Assembly: GCA_018701215.1 (NCBI GenBank)
Contig: JABIWH010000018.1
Span: 14,861-78,860, forward strand
DNA: 64,000 nucleotides
Direction: 5' to 3'
Source: Rhodospirillaceae bacterium
GTDB taxonomy: Bacteria; Pseudomonadota; Alphaproteobacteria; GCA-2731375
Shown here: in pieces, positions 1,846 to 44,087 of the stretch
Numbering within the stretch: the first letter of the stretch is position 1
Layout: each line of letters begins with the position of its first letter
Notes under the pieces: model-generated
The model's database searches: none
Told to the model about the DNA's origin: nothing
What the model saw: only the letters and a program-made list of their open reading frames with translations
Made by a program: the position numbers and the translations under genes

Positions 1846-1961
1846 TCATTTACCTCAGAAAAGAACCCAAAACCTGATGATTGCAGTCTCCATAGCATAA
1901 TATTTCGATTGTCGGAACGGATGGGGTAGGGTTGCCGGCGAAGCTTTTTTGGAGAGTGGAA

Positions 1962-3275
1962 ATGGCGAAGTATCTAAAGCAAGGCCTGGGCCAGGCGGAA
2001 GTGGACGAGGCGGACGCCAAGGTGCGGGCCCAGGTCGAGGCAATTTTGGCTGATATCCAGGCCCGCGGCGACGTCGCCGTGCGCGAATTGTCCGAGAAAT
2101 TCGATAACTGGAACCCGGAAAACTTCTCCCTCTCCGAGCAAGAGATCGAGGCCGCCATGGCAAAGGTCGCCAAGCGCGACCTGGACGATATCCGCTTTGC
2201 CCAGGAACAGGTGCGCAACTTCGCCCAGCATCAAAGGGACGCCCTGCGGGATGTGGAGGTCGAAACCATGCCTGGCGTGGTCCTGGGCCACAAGAACATC
2301 CCCGTGAATTCCGTCGGCTGCTATGTACCGGGGGGTAAATACCCCATGGTCGCCTCGGCCCATATGTCCGTGGTGACGGCCAAGGTCGCCGGCGTGCCGC
2401 GCATTGTTGCCTCCGCCCCGCCGCAAGGAGGCGCGCCGCATCCGGCAATTGTCGCCGCCATGCACATGGGCGGCGCGGATGAGATACTGGTCCTGGGCGG
2501 CATCCAGGCGGTTGCCACCATGGCCCTGGGGACTGAAAGCGTCAGCGGTGTCGATATGCTGGTGGGTCCGGGCAATATGTTCGTGGCCGAGGCCAAGCGG
2601 CAATTGTATGGCCGGGTCGGTATCGATCTGTTCGCGGGACCAACCGAAACCCTGATCATCGCCGACGACAGCACGGATGGGGAGCTGTGCGCCATCGACC
2701 TGCTGGGCCAGGCCGAACACGGCCCGACCTCTCCGGCCGTGTTATTGACCACCTCGGAGGCCCTGGCCAAGGACACCATGGCGGAAGTGGAGCGTCAGCT
2801 GGCGATCCTGCCAACGGCGGAGATCGCCCGGGAGTCCTGGGACAATTATGGCGCCGTTATCCTGTGTGACAGCGATGAAGAGATGTTGGCGGAGGCTGAC
2901 CGCCTGGCCTTTGAACATGTTCAGGTGATGACACACGACCCGGAATATTTCCTGGACAACATGACCAACTATGGCGCGATGTTTCTGGGCCCGCGCACCA
3001 ATGTTTCCTACGGCGACAAGGTGATCGGCACCAACCATACGTTGCCGACAAAACGCGCCGGGCGCTACACGGGCGGTCTGTGGGTGGGTAAATTCATCAA
3101 AACCCATACCTATCAGAGGGTTTTGACCGACGAAGCCTCCGCCTTGGTCGGGGAATATTGCTCCCGCCTGTGCATGCTGGAAGGTTTCGCCGGCCATGCG
3201 GAACAGGCCAACGCACGGGTGCGCCGCTATGGCGGCCGTAATGTGCCCCCCTATACGGCGGTGGAGCCGGCCTAG
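1962..3275 (+). CDS. Histidinol dehydrogenase family protein (HisD/HpsN-like NAD-dependent 4-electron dehydrogenase), likely catabolic rather than biosynthetic
   Basis: HisD-like motifs ([17 protein letters not shown], zinc-ligand region). ATG at 1962 follows a GGAGAG RBS. The gene sits in a catabolic gene cluster rather than a his operon. Confidence 0.75.
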
Positions 3276-4204
3276 TGACCGGACACATAGGTATTGTCGG
3301 CGCCGGCCTGGTCGGCGGCGGTTGGAGCATCGTTTTCGCCCGCGCCGGCGAACAGGTCCGCGTTTATGACGCGGCGCCCGCTATCCGCGATGATTTCAAG
3401 ACCGTGGTCGGACAACAGCTGGATGATCTGAAAAGCTATGACCTGGTGGCCGATCCCACCGCGATCATGGCCCGTATTCAGGTCTGTGATAATCTGGAAG
3501 ATGTGGTCAAAGGCGCGCGTTTTATCCAGGAATCCGTGTTGGAAGAGACGGAAGTGAAGACGGAAATTTCCAACGCCATCGGTCCATTGCTTGATGCTGG
3601 TGCCGTTGTCGGCAGCTCCACCTCCGGCATTCCCGGCTCCGCCTTTACCGAACATGCGGTGAACCGGGAGCGTTTCCTGGTCACCCATCCGGTCAATCCG
3701 CCCTATCTGGTACCCGTGGTCGAAGTGGTGCCGACGCCCTGGACCGCACAAGACAGCGTCGACGCCGCCCTGGCCCTGATGACCCAGATCGGCCAGTCCC
3801 CGGTATTGGTCCGCCGCGAGGTCGAGGGCTTCATCCTCAACCGGCTGCAAGGCGCGCTGTTGCGCGAGGCTTGGGATCTGTTCGAGGCAGGCTATGCCTC
3901 GGCCGAGGATATCGACAAAACCGTATCGGAAGGCCTGGGCCTGCGCTGGTCCTTCATGGGGCCGATCGAAACCATCGATCTGAACGCGCCGGGCGGCGTT
4001 GCCGATTATGCCGCGCGTCTGGGGCCGCTGTATCATTCGATCCAGAAATCCCGCACCGATCCCCAGCCGTGGAGCGCCGAACTGATCGGCGATGTGGACA
4101 AGGAACGCCGGGCCGCGCTGCCCAGCGACAAATTGGCGGCACGGCGCAATTGGCGCGACCGCCGGCTGATGGCCCTCGCCGCCCATAAAGCCAAGCAGAC
4201 CTGA
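3275..4204 (+). CDS. 3-hydroxyacyl-CoA dehydrogenase family NAD-binding protein
   Basis: GTG start overlapping the upstream stop by 1 nt. N-terminal IGIVGAGLVGGGWS Rossmann motif. 3HCDH-like middle and C-terminal regions (PVVEVVP, EVEGFILNR). Confidence 0.7.
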   Translation: MTGHIGIVGAGLVGGGWSIVFARAGEQVRVYDAAPAIRDDFKTVVGQQLDDLKSYDLVADPTAIMARIQVCDNLEDVVKGARFIQESVLEETEVKTEISNAIGPLLDAGAVVGSSTSGIPGSAFTEHAVNRERFLVTHPVNPPYLVPVVEVVPTPWTAQDSVDAALALMTQIGQSPVLVRREVEGFILNRLQGALLREAWDLFEAGYASAEDIDKTVSEGLGLRWSFMGPIETIDLNAPGGVADYAARLGPLYHSIQKSRTDPQPWSAELIGDVDKERRAALPSDKLAARRNWRDRRLMALAAHKAKQT

Positions 4205-4968
4205 TGGTTGCTGATACGATTAAGGATTTCCAACTGGACGGCCAGCTCGCCGTCGTCACCGGTGCTTCGCGTGGTTTGGGGCAAGGCTGCGCACTGGCCC
4301 TGGCCGGGGCCGGGGCGGACGTGGCCCTGATCGGGCGCAACCAGGATGATCTGGTCGCCGTCGCCAAGGACATTCAAAAGCTGGGCCGTACCGCGCACGT
4401 TCTGGCCATTGATGTCACCAACATCGACGACCTGGCCGCCATGCTGGGACAGCTGCCGCCCTTTGGGATCTTCGTCAACAACGCCGGCACCAACAAACCG
4501 CAACCGTTTTTGGCAGTGGACGCCGAGACCTACGACATGGTCATGAACCTGAACCTGCGTGCCGCCTTTTTCGCGGCCCAGGCCGCCGCCCGGCTGATGG
4601 CCGCGCGGGGCCAGGGTGGGAGCATCATCAACATGTCGTCCCAGGCCGGCCATCGCGCTCTGCGCGACCGCAGTGTCTATTCCACCTCCAAATTCGCTAT
4701 CGAAGGCCTGACCAAGGCCATGGCCTTCGAGTTGGCGGAACAGAGCATCCGCGTCAACGCGGTGGCGCCGACCTTCGTTGAAACGCCCATGACCCAGGCC
4801 GGCCTGGCCCAAAAAGATTTCCGCGAATATGTGGAGGGCAAGATCAAGTTGCCGCGCCTGGGCCAAATCGGCGATGTTGCCGCCGCCGTGCTGTTCCTGG
4901 CCTCGCCCGCGTCAGCCATGATCACGGGCACTTCCCTGCTGGTCGACGGCGGTTGGACCATTCATTAG
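4204..4968 (+). CDS. Short-chain dehydrogenase/reductase (SDR)
   Basis: TGASRGLG cofactor motif, NNAG, the S...YxxxK catalytic pattern (YSTSK) and the PGxxxT C-terminal motif. ATG overlaps the upstream TGA (TGATG). Confidence 0.85.
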   Translation: MVADTIKDFQLDGQLAVVTGASRGLGQGCALALAGAGADVALIGRNQDDLVAVAKDIQKLGRTAHVLAIDVTNIDDLAAMLGQLPPFGIFVNNAGTNKPQPFLAVDAETYDMVMNLNLRAAFFAAQAAARLMAARGQGGSIINMSSQAGHRALRDRSVYSTSKFAIEGLTKAMAFELAEQSIRVNAVAPTFVETPMTQAGLAQKDFREYVEGKIKLPRLGQIGDVAAAVLFLASPASAMITGTSLLVDGGWTIH

Positions 4969-7962: not shown

Positions 7963-10900
7963 ATGAGTATTGAGAAACTGCTGGTCGCCAATCGCGGCGA
8001 AATCGCCATTCGCATTCTGCGCGCCGCCGCTGACCTGGGTATCCCCACGGTGGCGGTGTATGCCGGGGATGAAGCGGCATCCCTGCATCTGAGCAAGGCG
8101 GACGAAGCCGTGGCCTTGCCGGGCCGTGGCGTGCCGGCTTATCTGGATGGCGCGGCTGTCTTGGCCATCGCCCAGGAAAAGAACTGCGACGCCATTCATC
8201 CCGGCTATGGTTTCTTGAGTGAGAATGCCGATTTCGCCAATGCCTGCGGCCAGGCGGGTGTCGCCTTCGTGGGGCCGGGCGCGGAAACCCTGGACATGTT
8301 TGGCGACAAGGCGGCGGCGCGTGATTTGGCGGAGAAAAACGGCGTCCCCGTGTTGCCGGGCAGCCAAGGCGCGACGGATCTCGGCGCGGCGGAAGCATTT
8401 TTTGACATCCATGGCCCGACCATGATCAAGGCCATTGGCGGCGGCGGCGGGCGGGGCATGCGCGCGATCCTCGACAAGCGCGACCTGGCGGCTGCGTTGG
8501 AGCTGTGCCAGGCCGAGGCGCTACAGGCATTCGGTAACGGCGATGTCTTTGTCGAACGCTTGCTGGAAAAGCCCCGGCATGTGGAAATTCAGATCATCGG
8601 CGACGGCAGCGGCGCCATCTGCCATCTCGGCGAGCGGGAGTGCTCGATCCAGCGCCGCCATCAAAAGCTGGTGGAAATGGCTCCCGCCCCCGGCCTGGCT
8701 AGCGATCTGCGCGATAAGCTGACCGAGGCCGCTGTTACCCTGGCGGGCGCGGTGGACTATCGCAATTTGGGCACTTTTGAATTTCTGCTTGCCGGCGATG
8801 ATTTCTTTTTCATCGAAGCGAACCCGCGCCTGCAGGTCGAACACACGGTGACCGAGGAAGTCTGGGGCGTCGATCTGGTGCAAACCCAGCTACATATCGC
8901 CGGCGGCGCCTCGCTTGCGGAACTGGGCCTGACCCAGGTCGAGGCCGGCGCGCCACGTGGCCAGGCCATGCAGGTCCGCATCAACATGGAAACCATCGAG
9001 GCGGATGGCAGCGTGCGACCCACGGGCGGCATACTGGAAAGTTTCGAGATGCCGTCGGGCCCCGGCGTGCGTGTCGACAGCTTTGGCTATGCCGGCTACC
9101 GCACCTCGCCCAGCTATGATTCCCTGCTGGCCAAATTGATCGTTCATGCGCCGGGCAATGACTTCACCGTGCTGGCGCGGAAAACCTATCGGGCGCTGTG
9201 CGAATGCCGCATTGCCGGTCTGTCCAGCAACATTCCATTTCTGCAAAATCTGCTGTGCCATGGGGAGTTCCAGGCCGGCGAGATCAACACGCATTTTATC
9301 GACACCCACCTGGATGCCCTGGTCAGCGGCGCGGCGCATCAGCGCATGTTCTTCGAACCAGCCAGCGAGGCCCCGGCGGATGCCAATCTGGTGGGCGTCA
9401 AGGTCGATGCCTCCGACCCCTTGGCGATCCTGAGCCACGGCAGGTCCGAGGCGGCGCCCACGGTAACCGAGGCGGCAGGCAACAATCTGTCCGGCCCCGA
9501 CGGCACCGTCGCCATCCCCGCGCCCATGCAGGGTACCATTGTCAGCATTGATGTGGCCGAGGGCGACGATGTCTATCCCGGCCGCCAGGTGCTGGTTATG
9601 GAAGCCATGAAGATGCAGCATGTGATCGAGGCCGAGATCTCTGGCGTCTTGCGGCAACTGCCCGTGGGACCCGGCGATACCGTGTTCGAAGGCCATGCCC
9701 TGGCCTATGTGGCCGAGCAGGACGTGGTGATCCCGGATGCCGGTGAAGTGGTCGAGGTGGATCTGGATTACATCCGCCCCGATCTGGCGGAGGTCATGGA
9801 GCGCCAGGGCATCACCCTGGATGACCGCCGCCCCAACGCGGTGGCCCGGCGGCGCAAGACCAACCAACGCACGGCGCGGGAAAATATCGAGCAATTGTGC
9901 GACGAGGGTTCCTTCAGCGAATACGGCTCGCTGGTGCTGGCGGCGCGGCGGCGCATGCATACGCTTGATGAATTGATCGAGCGGACCCCCGCCGATGGCC
10001 TGATTACCGGCCTGGGCCGGATCAATGGCCAGCACTTTCCCGACGAAGCCGCCCGCTGCATTGTGATGTCCTACGACTACACCGTGTTGGCCGGCACCCA
10101 GGGTAAGAACAATCACAAGAAAAAGGACCGCATGTTCGAGATTGCCGAGAAAATGCGCCTGCCGGTGGTGTTTTTCACCGAGGGCGGCGGCGGCCGGCCC
10201 GGCGACACGGATATGATCTTCGCGGCCAACCTGCACGTTCCCGCCTTCAATCTGTTCGGTAAACTCAGCGGCCTGGTGCCTTTGGTGGGGATTACCTCGG
10301 GGCGTTGCTTTGCTGGTAATGCGGTGATGCTGGGCTGTTGCGATGTGATCATCGCCACCCAGAACTCAACCATCGGTATGGGCGGCCCGGCGATGATCGA
10401 AGGCGGCGGCCTGGGTGTTTTCCGGCCCGAGGAAGTCGGCCCGATGTCGGTGCAGGTGCCTAATGGCGTGGTTGATATCGCCGTGGAGGATGAGGAAGAG
10501 GCGGTCGAGGCGGCAAAGAAATATCTCAGCTATTTCCAAGGCACGATCGAAGAATGGGACTGCGTCGATCAGCGCCTGTTGCGTCAGGCCATACCGGAAG
10601 ACCGCCTGCGCATCTATGATGTGCGCAAGGTGGTGGAGCAAATATGCGATACCGGCTCGGTGCTGGAACTGCGCGCCGGTTTTGGCCTCGGGATGGTCAC
10701 GGCTCTGGCCCGTATTGAAGGCCGGCCGGTCGGCATCGTGGCCAATAATCCAAGCCATCTGGCAGGTGCTATCGATAGCGACGCCTCGGACAAGGCGGCG
10801 CGTTTCCTGCAACTTTGCGATGCCTACGACATTCCCCTGGTCTTCTTGTGCGATACGCCGGGCAATATGGTCGGGCCGGAGGCCGAGAAAGAGGCCCTGG

Positions 10901-35101: not shown

Positions 35102-35839
35102 TCAAACCGAAACGGAGAGATCCTGCAGCCATGCCGGCAGGATATCAAGCAGCTGGTTTTCCAGCCAGTGATCTACCCCAAACAGAATGCCCATGCCCAC
35201 TAACAAGAACGTGATGCCCAGGATCGGCTTGGCCTTGCCGGCCAGCAATCTGAGCGCCCGTTGCCGTTTCACCACCACTTCCCGGGTGCCGAACGCCAGG
35301 GCCAGCACGATGGTGGAAACTCCCAACGCGAAGGCGGTCATGATGGCGCCGGACCAGATTACGTCCTGGCCTTGCGAGGCCAGGGATATGGCCCCGCCCA
35401 GGGTGGGGCCGATACAGGGCGACCAGACCGCCCCCAGCATGGCGCCGCCCAGGAACTGTCAGCGCAGCCCAGTATCGGTGCCGGTGCTATCGCCGCTGCT
35501 CCCCATGGCGTGCAGGCGGGCATCAGCGGTGGCGGCGAACCCGGCGGTGGCGGTGGCAAAGCGCTCGTTCAGGCGCGGGATCAACAACACCAGGCCAAAG
35601 CCGATCATCATCCAGGCGCCGATTTTGGTCATCAATCGCTGGTCAAGGCCGATGGACGATCCCAGCACGATGACGAACAGCCCGACCAGGACGAAAGACA
35701 GGCTCAACCCCGCCGCCAGTGCCAACGGGCCCCGGCGGTCGGCCTGTAACGAGGCCGCCAGGACAATGGGCAGCACCGGCAAGACGCACGGGTTCAAAAG
35801 GGTCAACAACCCGGCGATAAAAGCAAAAAACAATTCCAC
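35102..35839 (-). CDS. ccdA: CcdA/DsbD-family thiol-disulfide transporter (cytochrome c biogenesis protein CcdA) interrupted by a single in-frame TGA
   Basis: The N-part (35459..35839, MELFFAFIAGLLTLLNPCVLPVL...) and C-part (35102..35440, ...AVWSPCIGPTLGGA...) lie in the same frame. They are separated only by TGA at 35459-35461 (...GTDTGLR-TGA-QFLGGAMLGAVWSPC). Both conserved CcdA cysteines (NPC and SPC) are present. Either selenocysteine/readthrough or a nonsense pseudogene. Confidence 0.5.
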
Positions 35840-35982
35840 GAGCGAACCACTCCATGTCCCTGCGGGTCAACTTATCGAGGCTCGATATCACGGCTATTGC
35901 CCAGGCGACAACATGGCGCCGGTCACGATAGCGTGTCCCATCAACGTTGCGCCAAGGCCGGCGGGACGACTACAATCCCGCC

Positions 35983-36588
35983 ATGTCCTCAGCAAACCGT
36001 CAACTCGCCGCCATTGTGATCGCCCACACGGTCGGCGCCCACGAACGTAGCGGCGAACTGTTGCAGGACATCTTCAGGCCGTACCTGAAGCAGTACAACG
36101 GCCGCCTGCTCAAAGCCGGGGACGATCGTCTCGTGCTGGCCTTCACCTCCGCCGTGGCGGCGGTGAATTTCGCGCTTGATGTCCAGCGGACCCTGCCGAT
36201 CCACCAAAGCGACTGGCCCCAGGGCCAGCGCCTGCGCTTTCGCCTTGGCATAAATCTGGGCGATATCGTCGTCGACGGTGATGCTGTCCACGGCGACGGT
36301 GTCGACGTGGCAGCCGGCCTCGGCGCCCTGGTGGAACCGGGCGGCATCCTGATCGCGGGCAATGTCCTCAACCAGGTGCGCCGCCGCCTCGATCATGTGG
36401 CGTTCGAGGATATGGGGCCGCAAAACGTGGCCAATGGGCCCGGCCCGGTGTCCAGCTACCGGGTGCTGCTTGATCCCCCCGCCGTTGCCGCGGCGGGCGG
36501 CGGCGGCAGGCTCTTGACCGGGCGGCAGCTCGCCCTGGCTCTGCTGGTCCTGATACTTTTTTCCGGCATGGTGTATTGGAAGCTATAG
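35983..36588 (+). CDS. Adenylate/guanylate cyclase (class III CHD) domain protein with C-terminal membrane anchor, possibly catalytically degenerate
   Basis: CHD-like LKAGDDRLVLAF and GINLGDIVVDGDAVHGDGVDVAAGLGALVEPGGILIAGNV. The first metal-binding Asp position reads AHTVG instead of F.D.xGFT. C-terminal hydrophobic LALALLVLILFSGMVYW. Confidence 0.5.
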   Translation: MSSANRQLAAIVIAHTVGAHERSGELLQDIFRPYLKQYNGRLLKAGDDRLVLAFTSAVAAVNFALDVQRTLPIHQSDWPQGQRLRFRLGINLGDIVVDGDAVHGDGVDVAAGLGALVEPGGILIAGNVLNQVRRRLDHVAFEDMGPQNVANGPGPVSSYRVLLDPPAVAAAGGGGRLLTGRQLALALLVLILFSGMVYWKL

Positions 36589-37397: not shown

Positions 37398-37467
37398 GGC
37401 GACGTTAGATCGCGCGGGATCGCGCCAGCGGTCCCAGGGGCGAAATTTGCAGCCAGTTGTTGGGGCT

Positions 37468-37495
37468 GTTCCCGATAACTTTGCTTATCGGGAAC
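37468..37495 (+). terminator. Hairpin downstream of nitroreductase (GTTCCCGATAA-CTTTGC-TTATCGGGAAC)
   Basis: Perfect 11-bp inverted repeat 70 bp after the stop. No U-tract, so it could equally be a REP-like element. Confidence 0.35.
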
Positions 37496-37761
37496 GGCCC
37501 CTTGCCGCCTGGTATTAATCTATGGGCGCGCCGTGACAGGGTGGCCGGGCATATTAGCCCGGCTTATTGTCGGATCGCCGCCTGTTGGCCCTGGATGCCC
37601 GGATCAAGTCCGGGCATGACATTTTAGCGGAATTCAGCCAAAGCCTTTCCCACTTCGTCATTGCCGGGCTTGACCCGGCAATCCAGGGCAACCAAATCAA
37701 ATGCTTGCAGCCCTGGCTCACCCGGGGCTCCCGGGGGTCTCCGCGTCATTCCGCCCAAGTG

Positions 37762-39057
37762 TTAAAAGGGTAGCGTCCCCTTTGATTCCCTTGTGTCTAC
37801 ACCAACAACGTATTCAGTTTCCCAGTCAGGAAACGACCCCCGTTTGATCAAGGTTCGTGCAACGCTTGCGCATAAGTTGGCTGCGTCTTCCAACAAATCC
37901 TTAGGGGGCGGCCCATTATACTTCTTACCCATTTTGAGTTCACCGGTATGCACGGCTTTGGATCTCAAATCATAGGCAACTCTAAGAAGCTTGAAGGTTT
38001 TCATTCGATCCTGTTGGCTGCCGCCCAGGAATGTTGCGCCTCGGATTGATGCCCGGTATGTCATTTCCGTACGTTCTCTAATGCCGTGAAGCAGCATTAC
38101 TTCCAACGAAATTCCAAGATCGATCGCCCGGTCCACAATTTCTTCCCTACCCAGCGCCAGGTTAAGTCGGTCCAAGCCAATTCGCATTACGTTTATTTCC
38201 GCAGGAGAAAATTCTCCGAAGTCATGAAAAAATCTAGTGATAAGTTCCCCATCTAACGCTCTCGGATTCCGAGTTGCCAAATGAGCGGAAACATCGGACA
38301 GAGCTGGTCCTTTGGAATAAGACCGAGCAAAGCAAAGGGTTGCGACCTGTTGTTCGAATTGCGCCCAATGTCCAAGCGCCACCACATGGCTTTCATTCAA
38401 GGCCGCGACACACCGCACCATGTCGTCAACCAATAGTTTGTTTTGTTTGCTGCTCTCGGTTGGAGGAAGTCTTCCCGCTGCCTCGGCTTGTTTGAATGAT
38501 GGAAATAATACCTGGTTTGACGCCGTGCGAAATCGCAATGCGAGGTCGCCCTTTGGCTGCATGGATCTATGCGGAACTTCATCAAATACTGCCTTCTGAT
38601 ATCCATCTGGAACGTCTCCCCAAGGCAGGAGGTCAACGTCACCTCTTAGACTGACGGCTTTGTCCAGTGTGGCTCCGGCCAAAGGTGTGTAAATTTCGGT
38701 TGCGCACGCCGGAGCGGCCGCAAATGCCCGCGCTTCCTCAACGAGCTTCTTGGCGGATTGGCCGTCCATCACGCAATTAATTAGTTGATAAGGAAACGCG
38801 CGGGACTGCACCTGATGGCCGCCACCAAACGCGTCTTGAATCCATCCGTTGCGAATATCTCCAAAAGACGGGTCCTTACTAAAGGCGGCTAATAACTGGG
38901 CCGCGCCACTTTGCTCTACCTCGAATGCTCGCAAAATTACCTCACTCCCAAAATGGCTGCGTGCACTCTCCATATGAAGCAAAGTCTCTTGCGCCTCACT
39001 AGCGGCCTGTTCCGCGAGGCTCACAATATCCATTTCATTTTGCACACCCTTTGCCAT
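37762..39057 (-). CDS. HEPN-superfamily protein (Rx4H motif) with an unrelated ~330-aa N-terminal region; candidate stand-alone defence/toxin (Abi/ApeA-like) gene in a low-GC islet
   Basis: 431-aa ORF at ~50% GC against ~65% in its flanks. The C-terminal region contains LRSKAVHTG (R-x4-H HEPN catalytic motif) inside a predicted helical segment. It is flanked by 360-bp and 230-bp non-coding regions carrying several hairpins. No close family recognised from sequence alone. Confidence 0.45.
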   Translation of the reverse strand: MAKGVQNEMDIVSLAEQAASEAQETLLHMESARSHFGSEVILRAFEVEQSGAAQLLAAFSKDPSFGDIRNGWIQDAFGGGHQVQSRAFPYQLINCVMDGQSAKKLVEEARAFAAAPACATEIYTPLAGATLDKAVSLRGDVDLLPWGDVPDGYQKAVFDEVPHRSMQPKGDLALRFRTASNQVLFPSFKQAEAAGRLPPTESSKQNKLLVDDMVRCVAALNESHVVALGHWAQFEQQVATLCFARSYSKGPALSDVSAHLATRNPRALDGELITRFFHDFGEFSPAEINVMRIGLDRLNLALGREEIVDRAIDLGISLEVMLLHGIRERTEMTYRASIRGATFLGGSQQDRMKTFKLLRVAYDLRSKAVHTGELKMGKKYNGPPPKDLLEDAANLCASVARTLIKRGSFPDWETEYVVGVDTRESKGTLPF

Positions 39058-39290
39058 CTCCAGAATCTATCAGAGAATGGCGCCGCAATCACGCGTCGCA
39101 TTCGGTTGGTCACTTGCACCTACCGCCACTCAGACATATATTTGAGGCCGCGGTGGAGACCCGGCGGGCCGGCCAACCATCCAATCCATCGCACCAGCTC
39201 AGACCCGGTCGTCCAGGTTTTTCTTTGCCCGATCAGATCCAAGTCAATCTTTCCGATCAACGGGGTCAAAGTAAATTGATTTGGCCGCGC

Positions 39291-40625
39291 TCAATCGGTC
39301 ACTGGAAAAAACTGGTTCTCCGGCCGGGGCAGACCGAGGTTTTCCCTCAATGTCATTCCCTCGTATTTACGGCGAAACAGGCCGCGGCGTTGTAGTTCCG
39401 GTACCACTTGGTCGACGAAATCGTCCAGGCCGGCGGGCAGGTAGGGGAACATGACGTTGAAGCCGTCGCAGGCGTCGGTTAGCAGCCATTCCTGCATTTG
39501 ATCGGCGATCATCGATGGCGTGCCGACCATGGCCAGGCCGGAATAGCCGCCCAGGCGTCCGGCCAGTTGCCGTACGGTCAGGTTTTCCCGTTCGGCCAGG
39601 GCCAACACCCGTTCGCGGCCGCTTTTCGAGGCATTGCTCTCCGGGATCGCAGGCAAAGGTCCGTCCGGATCAAAGCCGGAGGCATCATGGCCCAGGGCGA
39701 TGGACAGGGAGGCAATGGCGCTGTCGTAATGCACCAGGCTATCGAGCAAGGCGCGTTTTTCCTTGGCCTCGGCCGCCGTCTCGCCGACCACGACAAAGGC
39801 GCCGGGCAGGATTTTTAGATGCGCCCGCGCCCGGCCCAGCTGGTCCATGCGGCCCTTGACGTCGGCATAGAACGCCTGGCCGTCCGCCAGATTGGGCTGG
39901 GCGGCAAAAATAACCTCCGCCGTTTCCGCCGCCAGCTGCCGGCCCGCGTCCGAGGCGCCGGCCTGCACGATCACCGGCCAGCCCTGGGGCGGCCGGGCAA
40001 TGTTCAGCGGCCCGCGCACGGATAGAAATTCGCCATTGTGGTCCAGTACATGCAGTTTGTCGGGATCAAAAAATACGCCGCTGTCCACATCGCGGATGAA
40101 GGCGTCATCGGCCCAGCTGTCCCACAGCCCGGTGACCACATCGACGAATTCCCGGGCCCGGCGGTAACGCTCGCCATGCTCCATATGATCCTGCATGCCG
40201 AAATTCAGCGCCGCATCCGGATTGGAGGTCGTGACCAGGTTCCAGGCGGCCCGGCCGCCGCTGATATGATCCAGGGAGGCAAAGCGCCGGGCAATGGTAT
40301 AGGCCGGCTCGAACGTGGTTGAAGCCGTCGCGATCAGGCCCAGGTGTTCCGTCACCATGGCCAGCGCGGGCAACAGGGTCAGGGGATCGAATGAAGTTGA
40401 AGTCGCGCTGCGTTTCAACGCCTCCATGGGCATGTTCAGCACGGCCAGATGATCGGCCATGAAAAAGGCGTCGAATTTGCCCTGCTCCAGCTTTTGGGCA
40501 TAGCCCGTTAGGGCCTTAAGGTCGAAGTTGGCGTTCGGCGTACCGCCGGGATAACGCCAAGCGGCGGTGTGGATGGAGGCCGGGCGCATGAAGGCGCCCA
40601 GGCGTAGTTGTCTTTCTGATGTCAT
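39291..40625 (-). CDS. LLM-class flavin-dependent monooxygenase (NtaA/SnaA/DszA/SsuD-like)
   Basis: 444 aa. Luciferase-like monooxygenase sequence (LGAFMRPASIHTAAWRYP..., FFMADHL, insertion region typical of NtaA/DszA group). Confidence 0.8.
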   Translation of the reverse strand: MTSERQLRLGAFMRPASIHTAAWRYPGGTPNANFDLKALTGYAQKLEQGKFDAFFMADHLAVLNMPMEALKRSATSTSFDPLTLLPALAMVTEHLGLIATASTTFEPAYTIARRFASLDHISGGRAAWNLVTTSNPDAALNFGMQDHMEHGERYRRAREFVDVVTGLWDSWADDAFIRDVDSGVFFDPDKLHVLDHNGEFLSVRGPLNIARPPQGWPVIVQAGASDAGRQLAAETAEVIFAAQPNLADGQAFYADVKGRMDQLGRARAHLKILPGAFVVVGETAAEAKEKRALLDSLVHYDSAIASLSIALGHDASGFDPDGPLPAIPESNASKSGRERVLALAERENLTVRQLAGRLGGYSGLAMVGTPSMIADQMQEWLLTDACDGFNVMFPYLPAGLDDFVDQVVPELQRRGLFRRKYEGMTLRENLGLPRPENQFFPVTD

Positions 40626-42768: not shown

Positions 42769-43962
42769 TTAACGCACGCGGTACTCATCGGGTAAGAACA
42801 TCAGGCTGTCCTGTTCCTCGGCAACCGCCATGTGGCATTCGTAGCAGAAGTCCATCTTGGCCGAACCGGCGCCGTTGGTGGTGCCGAATACCTGGCCGTT
42901 GGGCAGCACCATGGTGTAACGCCAGTTGCCGGACACCTTTTTGAAACCAGCCGGCATTTTCTCCATCAGGAACAACGGTCCCGCCGCCAGCTTGCCGTTC
43001 GCCTTGGCAACGAAGCTGTCCTTGGCCAGGATGGCGCCAACGGGCATGCGGCCCGCCGCTTCATACTTGCCGTAGTTGCCGGCGGTGGTGTTGCCGTAGT
43101 TGTTGACGTAGCGGCCGCCATGGGTGTCCGAGACATAGGGTTGCGAGGAATAGTTCTTCCAGTCCTTGTAGTGGCCGGCCACGGTCAGGCCGGATTTGCC
43201 ATAGCCGGCGACAAGATCCTTGACCAGGCAGTCATAGGCCTTGCGTGCCTCGCCCGCCGTCAACTCGGCCACGGCGCCGGCGCCACAGGGATTACACGGG
43301 TTGCAGGGATTGCACGGGCCGCAGCCCTTCTTGGCGGCGCAGGGGTTGCACGGGCTGCAAGCTTTCTTGGCGGCACATGGATTACAGGCGCCGCAGTTTT
43401 TCTTTTTCGCCGCGCAGGGATTACACAATGCCGCCTTGACCAGTCGCGGGATGGCGCATTTTAGCGAGGCCGAGGCAGCGCCCGCACCGCATGGGTTACA
43501 GGGATTACAGGCACCACAGCCTTTTTTCGCGGCGCAGGGGTTGCACGGATTACAGGCTTTCTTGGCAGCGCAGGGATTACAGGCGCCACAGCCTTTTTTC
43601 GCCGCACATGGATTACAGGCACCGCAACCTTTCTTCTTGGCACCGCAAGGGTTGCACGCACCGCAGCCGCGTTTCTTGCTGGCGCACGGGTTGCACGAGG
43701 CGGCTACCTGCATTGGGCTCTGCTGTCTTGGCGCGGCAGGCGCGTTAGGCTGCTGGCCACTAGCCGCGGCTCCCCTGGCGACAGCCGCCGGATTGAGGCC
43801 ATGACTGGCGCCGGACGCCGGTATAGCGGCTCTGGCAAAGGCGACATCGGCCAACGGGATCGCCGCCCCGGCCGTCAAGGCCGCCCCCATAACCACATGC
43901 AACACGGATGATTTGATGATTTTGCTTTTTGTTGATCGCACGATCCAGCCTCCAGCATTCAT
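42769..43962 (-). CDS. Secreted cytochrome P460-family protein (C-terminal CxxCH) with N-terminal Cys-rich C-N-P-C tandem-repeat module
   Basis: Signal peptide (KIIKSSVLHVVMGAALTAGAAIPLADVAFA). About 17 C[NS]PC motifs in 9-12-aa repeats (CNPCAAKKGCGA...), arranged as two blocks each ending CNPCNPCGAGA. C-terminal ~170 aa (..QPYVSDTHGGRYVNNYGN...LFLMEKMP...GNWRYTMVLPNG...MDFCYECHMAV..FLPDEY) follow the cytochrome P460 / c-prime-beta pattern with heme-binding CYECH near the C-terminus. Start chosen at MNAGGW (43962); the ORF extends to 44025. Confidence 0.55.
   Translation of the reverse strand: MNAGGWIVRSTKSKIIKSSVLHVVMGAALTAGAAIPLADVAFARAAIPASGASHGLNPAAVARGAAASGQQPNAPAAPRQQSPMQVAASCNPCASKKRGCGACNPCGAKKKGCGACNPCAAKKGCGACNPCAAKKACNPCNPCAAKKGCGACNPCNPCGAGAASASLKCAIPRLVKAALCNPCAAKKKNCGACNPCAAKKACSPCNPCAAKKGCGPCNPCNPCNPCGAGAVAELTAGEARKAYDCLVKDLVAGYGKSGLTVAGHYKDWKNYSSQPYVSDTHGGRYVNNYGNTTAGNYGKYEAAGRMPVGAILAKDSFVAKANGKLAAGPLFLMEKMPAGFKKVSGNWRYTMVLPNGQVFGTTNGAGSAKMDFCYECHMAVAEEQDSLMFLPDEYRVR
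43255..43700. repeat. Coding tandem repeat (27/36-bp period, higher-order ~220-bp duplication) encoding the CNPC module
   Basis: Recurrent GGATTACA(C/G)GG(G/C)..GCAGCC..TTTCTT(G)GC units are visible in the sequence. They are coding, not a CRISPR array. Confidence 0.7.
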
Positions 43963-44087
43963 TTGATTGTTCCCCAATTTTGCGTGCCCTAAATCTGCAC
44001 CCGCCGCGCGGTGGAAACGAGTCACATCAACTCAAACTTCCGTGAGCGGGTCTGGGAATTTGGTGATGTCGTCTGTAATTTCACAGC

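Follow-up and report, generated by a model that had tools for sequence, protein, structure and literature searches.

The question raised by this locus is what a solitary gene of low GC content, lying between metabolic genes, encodes and does. Within the stretch of DNA that was analyzed, a 64-kb segment here called the window, the complete gene occupies positions 37762..39057 on the minus strand, with its stop codon at 37762-37764, and encodes a protein of 431 amino acids, as the initial annotation had read from the open reading frame listing. The protein is NCBI MBT3370933.1, annotated as "hypothetical protein," and an exact copy from a Rhodospirillaceae MAG is found in NCBI, JGI, and ENA. The flanking genes encode a nitroreductase, an LLM monooxygenase, DSBA, and an MFS protein. 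No tRNA gene was found within the window, in agreement with the earlier reading of the locus. The GC content of the open reading frame is 0.509 against a mean of 0.608 for the window (z = -3.9), which is the minimum over all windows of 1296 bp in the 64 kb, and its GC3 is 0.49 against 0.69 to 0.83 in 12 other genes. The initial annotation had described the segment 37400-39290 as dropping to about 50% GC between flanks of about 65%. The dip is real, but the segment as a whole has 53.5% GC and the flanks about 61 to 63%. The low GC is confined to the open reading frame and the 233-bp spacer upstream of it (39058..39290, minus strand; GC, 0.56), while the 364-bp downstream spacer (37398..37761, no strand assigned) is host-like at 0.61.

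Comparison with related genomes suggests how the gene arrived. It is absent from the four closest syntenic relatives, whose resemblance to the window ends where the LLM gene reaches its 3' end (39304-39316). Relatives with LLM genes of 85 to 89% identity retain the P460-MFS-DSBA-LLM arrangement without the gene under study, and the content downstream differs in each of them. Judged by its foreign GC3 and its absence from these relatives, the gene would be a horizontal acquisition, and the earlier proposal to that effect withstood the comparison. The upstream spacer was probably acquired along with the gene, as suggested by its composition and by the point at which synteny ends, and presumably contains the promoter and 5' untranslated region of the gene. 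It has no inverted repeats and folds no better than shuffled sequences (z = +0.25). A phage origin was considered and rejected, as 2.9 million viral contigs gave one match only, to the C-terminal domain alone.

The initial annotation had assigned the C-terminal helical region to the HEPN RNases on the basis of an R-x4-6-H signature in LRSKAVHTG. This motif is present as R365-S-K-A-V-H370 (37948..37965, minus strand) and is the sole R-x4-H in the protein. The motif alone is within chance, as at least one R-x4-H occurs in 50% of shuffles of the 431-residue protein, and the assignment was carried instead by conservation and structure. R365 and H370 are kept in 46 of 46 close and 26 of 26 distant homologs, and the polar residue after the arginine, S366, in 71 of the 72. 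AF2 models almost the entire protein with confidence (pLDDT, 89.9; pTM, 0.87), and in this model the C-terminal 145 residues form a compact four-helix HEPN bundle. The domain (residues 285-431; 37765..38205, minus strand) has predicted helices at residues 285-303, 307-323, 332-344, 348-371, and 385-406, and helix 348-371, which is helix 3 of the bundle, has the R-x4-H at its C-terminal end. The structural neighbors of the bundle in fold searches are HEPN proteins. Of the two outcomes that the initial annotation had named as refuting its reading, an Rx4H outside a HEPN four-helix bundle and conservation of the gene at this locus at normal GC, neither was obtained. The HEPN superfamily is described as a four-helix up-and-down bundle of about 100 to 150 residues, in which R-x4-6-H ends helix 3 with a polar residue following the arginine, and a conserved acidic residue, often within E-x3-[KR], lies upstream of the motif; its members dimerize to form a composite active site that cleaves RNA independently of metal (Anantharaman et al. 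2013). The acidic residues here are D313 and E319, carried upstream of the R-x4-H by the helix motif A311-I-D-L-G-I-x-L-E319 (38101..38127, minus strand), which was recognized from invariant columns in the close and distant homolog sets (profiles A1 and A2). An E-x3-[KR] pattern is also present as E331-x3-R335, which shows little or no variation in the close family and is for the most part retained in distant members. Together, R365/H370, D313/E319, and the polar S366 constitute, as predicted from sequence, the features of metal-independent HEPN RNases.

Some HEPN domains, for example, that of MtlR, are noncatalytic, and some copies in the present family are truncated or contain stop codons, so the gene might be a decaying remnant whose HEPN fold no longer cuts RNA. 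We regard this as highly improbable. R297, D313, E319, Y362, R365, H370, and G372 are invariant in 72 of 72 homologs, with the window protein sharing R365, H370, and the acidic residues; the model shows confident structure nearly throughout; and the open reading frame is full length and intact in all 12 population copies that were read. Those copies show only two SNVs, too few for purifying selection to be read from them.

Model libraries did not name the family. Pfam, NCBIfam, and PADLOC gave no match for the window protein, 46 close relatives, 25 distant relatives, or 4 plasmid relatives. The Pfam result says nothing about kinship to ApeA, because genuine ApeA is also without a match in the same copy of Pfam. 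Foldseek searches with the whole protein against the PDB and the viral BFVD returned nothing significant, and a full-length profile against PDB sequences gave noise only (NusB; E = 0.7).

A link to ApeA emerged only with a profile confined to the C-terminal domain. Searched against 177,635 PDB sequences, this profile gave ApeA cryo-EM chains as the top matches (E values of 0.01 to 0.06, in two colinear segments), and hhalign against the ApeA HEPN domain gave a probability of 74 to 85% (E values of about 6e-6 to 3e-5; reversed control, 0.4%), in each case for a link that is confined to some 55 alignment columns surrounding the active site and has borderline E values. ApeA is a defense system of Gao et al. 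2020, for which cryo-EM structures of Ec1ApeA to Ec4ApeA are available (9HXB-9HXN). BLASTP aligned YDLRSKAVHTG of the window protein to YRTRNLIVHTG of ApeA, placing R365...H370 on R502...H507 of Ec2ApeA, including the catalytic R502, whose replacement in the R502A variant inactivates ApeA. The A311-E319 helix motif aligned weakly but colinearly to the "LWIAIESL" helix of ApeA. Both proteins carry Y-x-x-R-[SN]-x-x-V-H-[ST]-G, after which comes a helix 4 that is alike in the two, and upstream of it both have an h-[WG]-I-A-h-E helix. From these alignments, the ApeA HEPN domain is predicted to be the nearest characterized relative of the HEPN core, and ApeA structures were absent from the matches listed in the fold searches.

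It might be supposed from this that the protein is a true ApeA ortholog. It would then form a doughnut-shaped decamer or dodecamer, be switched on by 5'-phosphorylated deoxydinucleotides binding between its N-terminal and HEPN domains, and cut tRNA anticodon loops, as ApeA does. The overall logic is the same, with a single protein, a large N-terminal region, a HEPN domain at the C terminus, and no partner gene, and two proteins of the family bear the name "Apea-like HEPN" in JGI. However, the PADLOC ApeA model PDLC02157, which recognizes Ec1ApeA (1385 bits) and Ec2ApeA (E = 1.3e-12), did not match the window protein at E <= 10 or 25 of its relatives at E <= 1. The protein is also shorter than ApeA, at 431 residues against about 583 to 601. 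The HEPN domain of ApeA is split by insertions, such that 131 residues separate E371 from R502, whereas the domain here is compact, with about 145 residues in total and 46 between E319 and R365. The N-terminal 284 residues showed no detectable kinship to the N-terminal and Mid domains of ApeA (ApeA residues 1 to about 310); in hhalign with profiles A1 and A2, the probability was 0.1 to 0.2%, equal to that of the reversed control. On these grounds, orthology to ApeA is quite unlikely, and membership in the ApeA family proper is not supported. The initial annotation had described an ApeA-like single-protein system, and this description is upheld for the architecture and the catalytic core only.

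Three other groups of HEPN proteins were compared with the window protein. HepS, from the Gifsy-1 prophage, is an abortive-infection protein and tRNA anticodon nuclease dependent on the HEPN histidine; it senses a phage tail-tip protein directly, and its homologs were limited to under 250 amino acids. Like HepS, the window protein is a stand-alone HEPN protein without a partner or inhibitor gene, but HepS is a minimal HEPN protein and the window protein has an additional N-terminal region of about 285 residues, and this difference in architecture rules out a common family. DARNA (PD-T7-3), at 456 amino acids close to the window protein in size, is a HEPN tRNase that acts as a single protein; a noncatalytic domain in it senses single-stranded DNA, and it forms higher-order oligomers. 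Its domain order is the reverse of that seen here, with an N-terminal HEPN domain (R117-x4-H122) followed by a C-terminal helical sensor, and it was set aside as the same family on the basis of this opposite architecture and the silence of PADLOC. HepT of the type II/VII toxin-antitoxin pair HepT/MNT and further minimal HEPN toxins (such as 7ae2, 5yep, 2hsb, and 1wwp) are about 120 to 150 amino acids long and adjoin a nucleotidyltransferase antitoxin gene, whereas no nucleotidyltransferase neighbors the gene here or at the 34 family loci compared.

The part of the protein preceding the HEPN domain (residues 1-284; 38206..39057, minus strand) is of mixed alpha/beta structure in the AF2 model. 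The initial annotation had put its length at about 330 residues and had recognized nothing in it. It is shorter, at about 285 residues, and the second statement holds, as whole-protein fold searching gave this region no neighbor among solved structures. W72, P145-W146, and W231 are among the residues that the close family conserves, and conserved motifs are "PW-x2-hP-x4-K" and "LR-x-GW." The region is presumably a sensor or regulatory part.

Some HEPN toxins are kept in check by a separate antitoxin, which may be an RNA, as in AbiF, or a protein, as in HepT/MNT, and the initial annotation had offered as an alternative that the gene is the toxin of such a pair, with the antitoxin a small open reading frame or structured RNA in the flanks. 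The 364-nucleotide downstream spacer invites this idea, since it is extraordinarily structured, with a minimum free energy of -185 against -143 +/- 5.6 kcal/mol (z = -7.6). Hairpins had been reported in both flanks; those at 37462-37501 (with 17-nucleotide arms), 37595-37617, and 37660-37682 are real and represent three of the eight perfect hairpins with a stem of at least 9 in the whole window, but all of them are in the downstream spacer. That spacer is bounded by the nitroreductase and HEPN genes, which converge on it with their 3' ends, and has host-like GC, unlike the gene itself, while the upstream spacer is unstructured. Its strong structure was seen in the window only among 32 family loci, with nothing comparable after the 31 other genes. 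The spacers contain no tandem repeats, and their direct repeats are short, at chance level, and not of the ToxI type, such that the tandem-repeat array of type III toxin-antitoxin systems (ToxIN/AbiF-like) is not found here. Rfam gave no match in the flanks, and no open reading frame of at least 40 amino acids recurs beside 34 family genes. These results speak against a flank-encoded antitoxin, and we consider such a pair very unlikely.

The absence of a partner extends to the family. The initial annotation had noted no partner gene at the locus, where the neighbors are metabolic, and no neighbor family recurs across 34 family loci or among 121 neighbor open reading frames. Its members move as lone genes, unaccompanied by any conserved partner. 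Because there is no antitoxin gene, we propose that the restraint resides in the N-terminal region and that the HEPN RNase is probably self-regulated. In this proposal, the protein would dimerize through its HEPN domains, both subunits contributing to a single composite active site as they do in other HEPN enzymes, and the N-terminal region would hold the RNase off until it meets an infection cue, whether a ligand, some nucleic acid, or a protein of the phage. Once active, the enzyme would cleave RNA of the cell or of the phage (the precedent from ApeA, DARNA, and HepS being tRNA anticodon loops), leading to arrest of the cell and abortion of phage spread. We infer a defense or toxin function, and the protein is most likely an abortive-infection-type defense protein by prediction. 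The complete reading, of a stand-alone, horizontally acquired HEPN endoribonuclease with an N-terminal sensor that triggers RNA cleavage upon infection, is one that we favor with modest confidence.

The distribution of the family bears on whether it acts against phage at all. At 50% identity, the superfamily falls into about 9,000 clusters, with homologs scattered patchily over more than 10 phyla. Most chromosomal relatives, like the window gene, sit among housekeeping genes and not in defense islands, most members in MAG chromosomes having unrelated housekeeping genes around them, and these surroundings count against a defense function. In each population contig that was read, the gene is also fixed at this locus, which would fit a domesticated cellular function as well, and all 12 population copies are intact. 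The enzyme could then serve RNA processing, a stress response, or growth control in place of phage defense. We judge this rather unlikely, though deserving of consideration, in view of the strongly foreign GC3, the lack of the gene in the closest syntenic relatives, and the patchy occurrence of homologs whose GC is below that of their own locus in 23 of 26 cases. The truncated or stop-containing copies are likewise as expected for dispensable conflict genes. In addition, a minority of loci do show a defense or mobile association. One relative is accompanied by HsdR and an AbiJ-like protein, another by a Type ISP restriction-modification enzyme and phage CRI, a third by an integrase and a TIR protein, and a fourth by an integrase, HNH, HipA, and IS4. 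A relative on a conjugative plasmid is found with Wadjet-like genes, an Abi protein, and integrases.

PADLOC v2, Pfam, and NCBIfam do not cover the superfamily. We tentatively suggest, as a possibility that falls somewhat short of probable, that it constitutes an unrecognized and very widespread one-protein antiphage system, in which an ApeA-type HEPN domain is joined to a different sensor with a trigger other than deoxydinucleotides, and which occurs as naked single-gene inserts between housekeeping genes without a recognizable mobility gene. In ApeA, DARNA, and HepS, a HEPN tRNase and its sensor are built into a single protein. Each of the three responds to a different cue, and they serve as models of how one polypeptide can both sense infection and execute abortive infection. 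The present family joins an ApeA-like catalytic core to an unrelated, uncharacterized front domain, is abundant in environmental bacteria that are poorly covered by current defense catalogs, and was missed by the PADLOC version tested. If the window protein acts in defense, it would open the way to finding a sensor domain and a trigger that are both new, and would show how far solitary low-GC genes outside defense islands conceal defense capacity. If it does not, it would be an ordinary "HEPN domain-containing hypothetical protein."

The palindromes of the downstream spacer lie outside the module and are probably REP-like elements of host type or terminators. They are GC rich, by which they might tentatively be likened to dispersed REP-like repeats of Alphaproteobacteria, and in addition to the perfect hairpins they include a palindrome at 37544-37563 and an imperfect one of about 100 nucleotides at 37588-37688, whose arms hold the hairpins at 37595-37617 and 37660-37682. 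An integron cassette with an attC site was judged unlikely, as inspection by eye revealed no R''/R' core sites in the spacer and no integron integrase or cassette array is nearby. Elsewhere in the window there is no similar palindrome unit, and in 1.1 Mb of the loci compared there is a single one, at locus L058.

The open reading frame at 37762..39057 on the minus strand, encoding 431 amino acids, lies exactly where the initial annotation placed it. Its product is called hypothetical by NCBI (Rhodospirillaceae MAG GCA_018660755.1), and neither it nor its relatives had any match in Pfam, NCBIfam, or PADLOC. An R-x4-H motif arises in half of this protein's shuffles and carries little weight alone; its significance comes from being the only one in the protein and from the conservation of R365 and H370 in 46/46 close and 26/26 distant homologs. 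An AlphaFold2 model built from the 46-sequence alignment was of high confidence (pLDDT 89.9, pTM 0.87) and predicts a mixed alpha/beta N-terminal region (residues ~10 to 280), followed by C-terminal helices at 285-303, 307-323, 332-344, 348-371, and 385-406. About 285 residues precede the HEPN bundle in this model, not the ~330 first estimated. R365...H370 forms the C-terminal end of helix 348-371, in exact agreement with the HEPN census (Anantharaman et al. 2013), in which the R-x4-6-H motif ends helix 3; an R-x4-H outside a HEPN bundle, raised initially as grounds for rejection, is thus not what the model predicts. The census also looks for a polar residue after the arginine, here S366 in 71 of the 72 homologs, and for upstream acidic residues, here the invariant D313 and E319; E331-x3-R335 is conserved as well. 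As modeled, the fold is that of a HEPN protein and the catalytic residues are intact and invariant, and we regard an inactive remnant as highly improbable, more so than the main rival reading, a domesticated cellular RNase.

For comparison with ApeA, a known antiphage HEPN protein, full-length Ec1ApeA and Ec2ApeA were recovered as controls from E. coli genomes via DNA fragments in the supplement of a 2026 ApeA preprint. Both are themselves without a match in the Pfam copy used, so the Pfam negative for the window protein is uninformative on ApeA. The PADLOC ApeA model picked up both controls (1385 bits and E = 1.3e-12) and gave no match to the window protein or 25 relatives. The best BLASTP segment aligned residues 358 to 410 with ApeA 495 to 540, placing YDLRSKAVHTG over YRTRNLIVHTG, the ApeA stretch with the catalytic R502. 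Searched against all 177,635 distinct PDB sequences, a profile restricted to the C-terminal domain had ApeA cryo-EM chains as its best matches (E 0.01 to 0.06, two co-linear segments), and no other HEPN family was among the matches listed. The same domain aligned with the ApeA profile in hhalign at 74 to 85% probability (E ~6e-6 to 3e-5), against 0.4% for the reversed-sequence control, while residues 1 to 284 scored 0.1 to 0.2% against the ApeA N-terminal and Mid domains, equal to the reversed control. Nothing found matched the N-terminal part, and whole-chain Foldseek against PDB and viral models was empty. Neither fold search listed ApeA chains; the PDB sequence copy does include them, but the fold libraries may not. 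In the compact HEPN domain of this protein, E319 and R365 are separated by 46 residues, whereas the ApeA domain is split by insertions (E371 to R502, 131 residues).

These comparisons point to a protein in which an unrelated front part precedes an ApeA-like HEPN core, an arrangement that is unsurprising in principle; it would resemble ApeA in working outline yet falls outside the ApeA family as now defined. Database names agree with such a core: JGI labels two family members "Apea-like HEPN," and PGAP/UniRef call others "HEPN domain-containing protein." The proposed ApeA likeness survives for the catalytic core and outline but fails for the N-terminal part, the PADLOC model, and the split HEPN domain, and a strict ApeA ortholog is improbable, less likely than a domesticated RNase. 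By analogy with established HEPN enzymes in general and with ApeA, DARNA, and HepS, two HEPN domains would dimerize into a composite metal-independent RNase site, the N-terminal region may autoinhibit the RNase until an infection cue is sensed, and the activated enzyme could then cut tRNA or other RNA, leading to growth arrest. Regarding the controls themselves, Ec2ApeA (2605-4356 of its locus in E. coli JNQH497) lies inside a P2-like prophage, with baseplate/tail genes on one side and virion-morphogenesis genes on the other, and is only a "hypothetical protein" in PGAP; Ec1ApeA carries the name "HEPN family anti-phage protein ApeA" and adjoins a MobQ relaxase gene.

The low GC content was borne out. 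The ORF, at 0.509 against 0.608 for the window (z = -3.9), is the minimum among all 1296-bp windows of the 64 kb, and its GC3 is 0.49 compared with 0.69 to 0.83 in twelve other window genes. The low-GC segment includes the 233-bp upstream spacer (0.56) but not, contrary to the initial annotation, the 364-bp downstream spacer, which is host-like (0.61); the flanking genes measure 61 to 63% rather than ~65%. No tRNA occurs in the 64-kb window, and the neighbors are metabolic: an SBP_bac_5 protein, a DsbD-like protein, a nitroreductase, an LLM monooxygenase, DSBA, an MFS transporter, and a cytochrome P460-like protein. The HEPN gene occupies the same locus in every population contig read. Among 80 metagenomic loci with LLM orthologs, the P460-MFS-DSBA-LLM order is kept only in the four closest (85 to 89% identity). 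Each of these loses its similarity to the window at 39304-39316, where the LLM gene has its 3' end, and has neither the HEPN gene nor the nitroreductase; the genes downstream of LLM differ in each relative whose contig runs past the junction. This places the gene at a variable junction and makes it lineage specific; the contrary expectation, a gene conserved here with ordinary GC, proved false. The HEPN gene is foreign in composition and lineage specific in presence. One syntenic relative (L034) has at this position (1879-3315) a second LLM-family gene fragment and a further LLM oxidoreductase, then a P450.

An exhaustive profile search for relatives gave 9,163 cluster representatives (50% identity) at E <= 1e-3 and 811 at E <= 1e-30, mostly 370 to 460 amino acids long and aligned over nearly full length. 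Reference-genome relatives came from Bacteroidota, several Alpha-, Beta-, and Gammaproteobacteria, Marinimicrobia, Hydrogenedentales, Desulfobacterales, Verrucomicrobiota, Terriglobia, Saccharibacteria, Gemmatimonadales, Chloroflexi, and Actinomycetes. GC was below that of the surrounding locus in 23/26 relatives (e.g., 0.48 versus 0.61, 0.47 versus 0.61, and 0.37 versus 0.48). No neighboring ORF of at least 40 amino acids within 2.5 kb recurred across 34 family loci, in keeping with the stand-alone architecture first proposed, and 121 neighbor ORFs from 18 genome loci mapped to 107 different Pfam families, most of them housekeeping. The family is thus mobile as one gene and is usually met as a lone insert. 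In a minority of members the setting is clearly one of defense or mobility: beside HsdR and an AbiJ-like protein; beside a Type ISP R-M enzyme and a phage CRI protein; in an island that also has an integrase and a TIR protein; in an unannotated element with an integrase; on plasmids, adjoining integrases, an HNH nuclease, HipA, and IS4; and beside a Wadjet-like cluster and an Abi protein. Others sit amid housekeeping genes, as the window copy does, a setting that would also suit a domesticated cellular RNase, a reading that we consider unlikely. Viral contigs gave a single family match, to the C-terminal domain alone. Degraded copies, which fit a dispensable, often-lost gene, include a superfamily copy with an internal stop at codon 451 (L005 9767-11224), a 122-amino-acid C-terminal fragment on an Aminobacter plasmid (L031 8010-8378; HEPN domain protein in PGAP), and a 240-amino-acid C-terminal copy, P0049, from the integrase-TIR island (L112 674-1396).

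The hairpins noted in the initial annotation are real and more extensive than stated. The 364-nt spacer between convergent gene ends (37398-37761) contains a hairpin with 17-nt arms (37462-37501), a 7-bp hairpin (37544-37563), and an imperfect palindrome of ~100 nt (37588-37688) whose arms hold two 9-bp hairpins. It has 3/8 of the window's perfect hairpins with stems of at least 9 and an MFE of -185 versus -143 +/- 5.6 kcal/mol for shuffles (z = -7.6); the upstream spacer is unstructured. Among 32 family loci, strong downstream structure was found in the window alone (z = -8.1; others > -2.4), the flanks have no ToxI-type repeats, and the spacer matched no Rfam family. For these reasons, and given its host-like GC, the spacer is outside the module. 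The same findings speak against the suggested flank-encoded antitoxin, and a toxin so paired is very unlikely, below a domesticated RNase. The palindromes are most likely host-type REP-like palindromes or bidirectional terminators and may constitute a family of REP-like elements in this lineage; a similar unit was seen once elsewhere (L058, another retrieved locus, 10016-10032).

Several other features of the window were observed. Between the DsbD-like and nitroreductase genes lies a 213-amino-acid ORF (35947-36588, plus strand) without a Pfam match at E <= 1e-3, kept in population contigs, where it is called at 201 amino acids. The DsbD/CcdA-type membrane protein gene (35102-35839, minus strand) has one in-frame TGA (...TDTGLR-TGA-QFLGGAMLGAVWSPC...) dividing it into ORFs of 126 and 112 amino acids. 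Gene calls in several population contigs (L119, L120, and L124) show this division too, which is therefore no assembly error of the window; the TGA could mark a pseudogene or a site of read-through or recoding. The cytochrome P460-like protein (42769-44025, minus strand) has a long Cys-rich N-terminal region, and its gene contains 36-nt tandem repeats at 43304-43404 and 43499-43636 that code for ~12-amino-acid units of the type CNPCAAKKGCGA. The length of this repeat region differs among relatives, one of which (L032) gave multiple offset matches.
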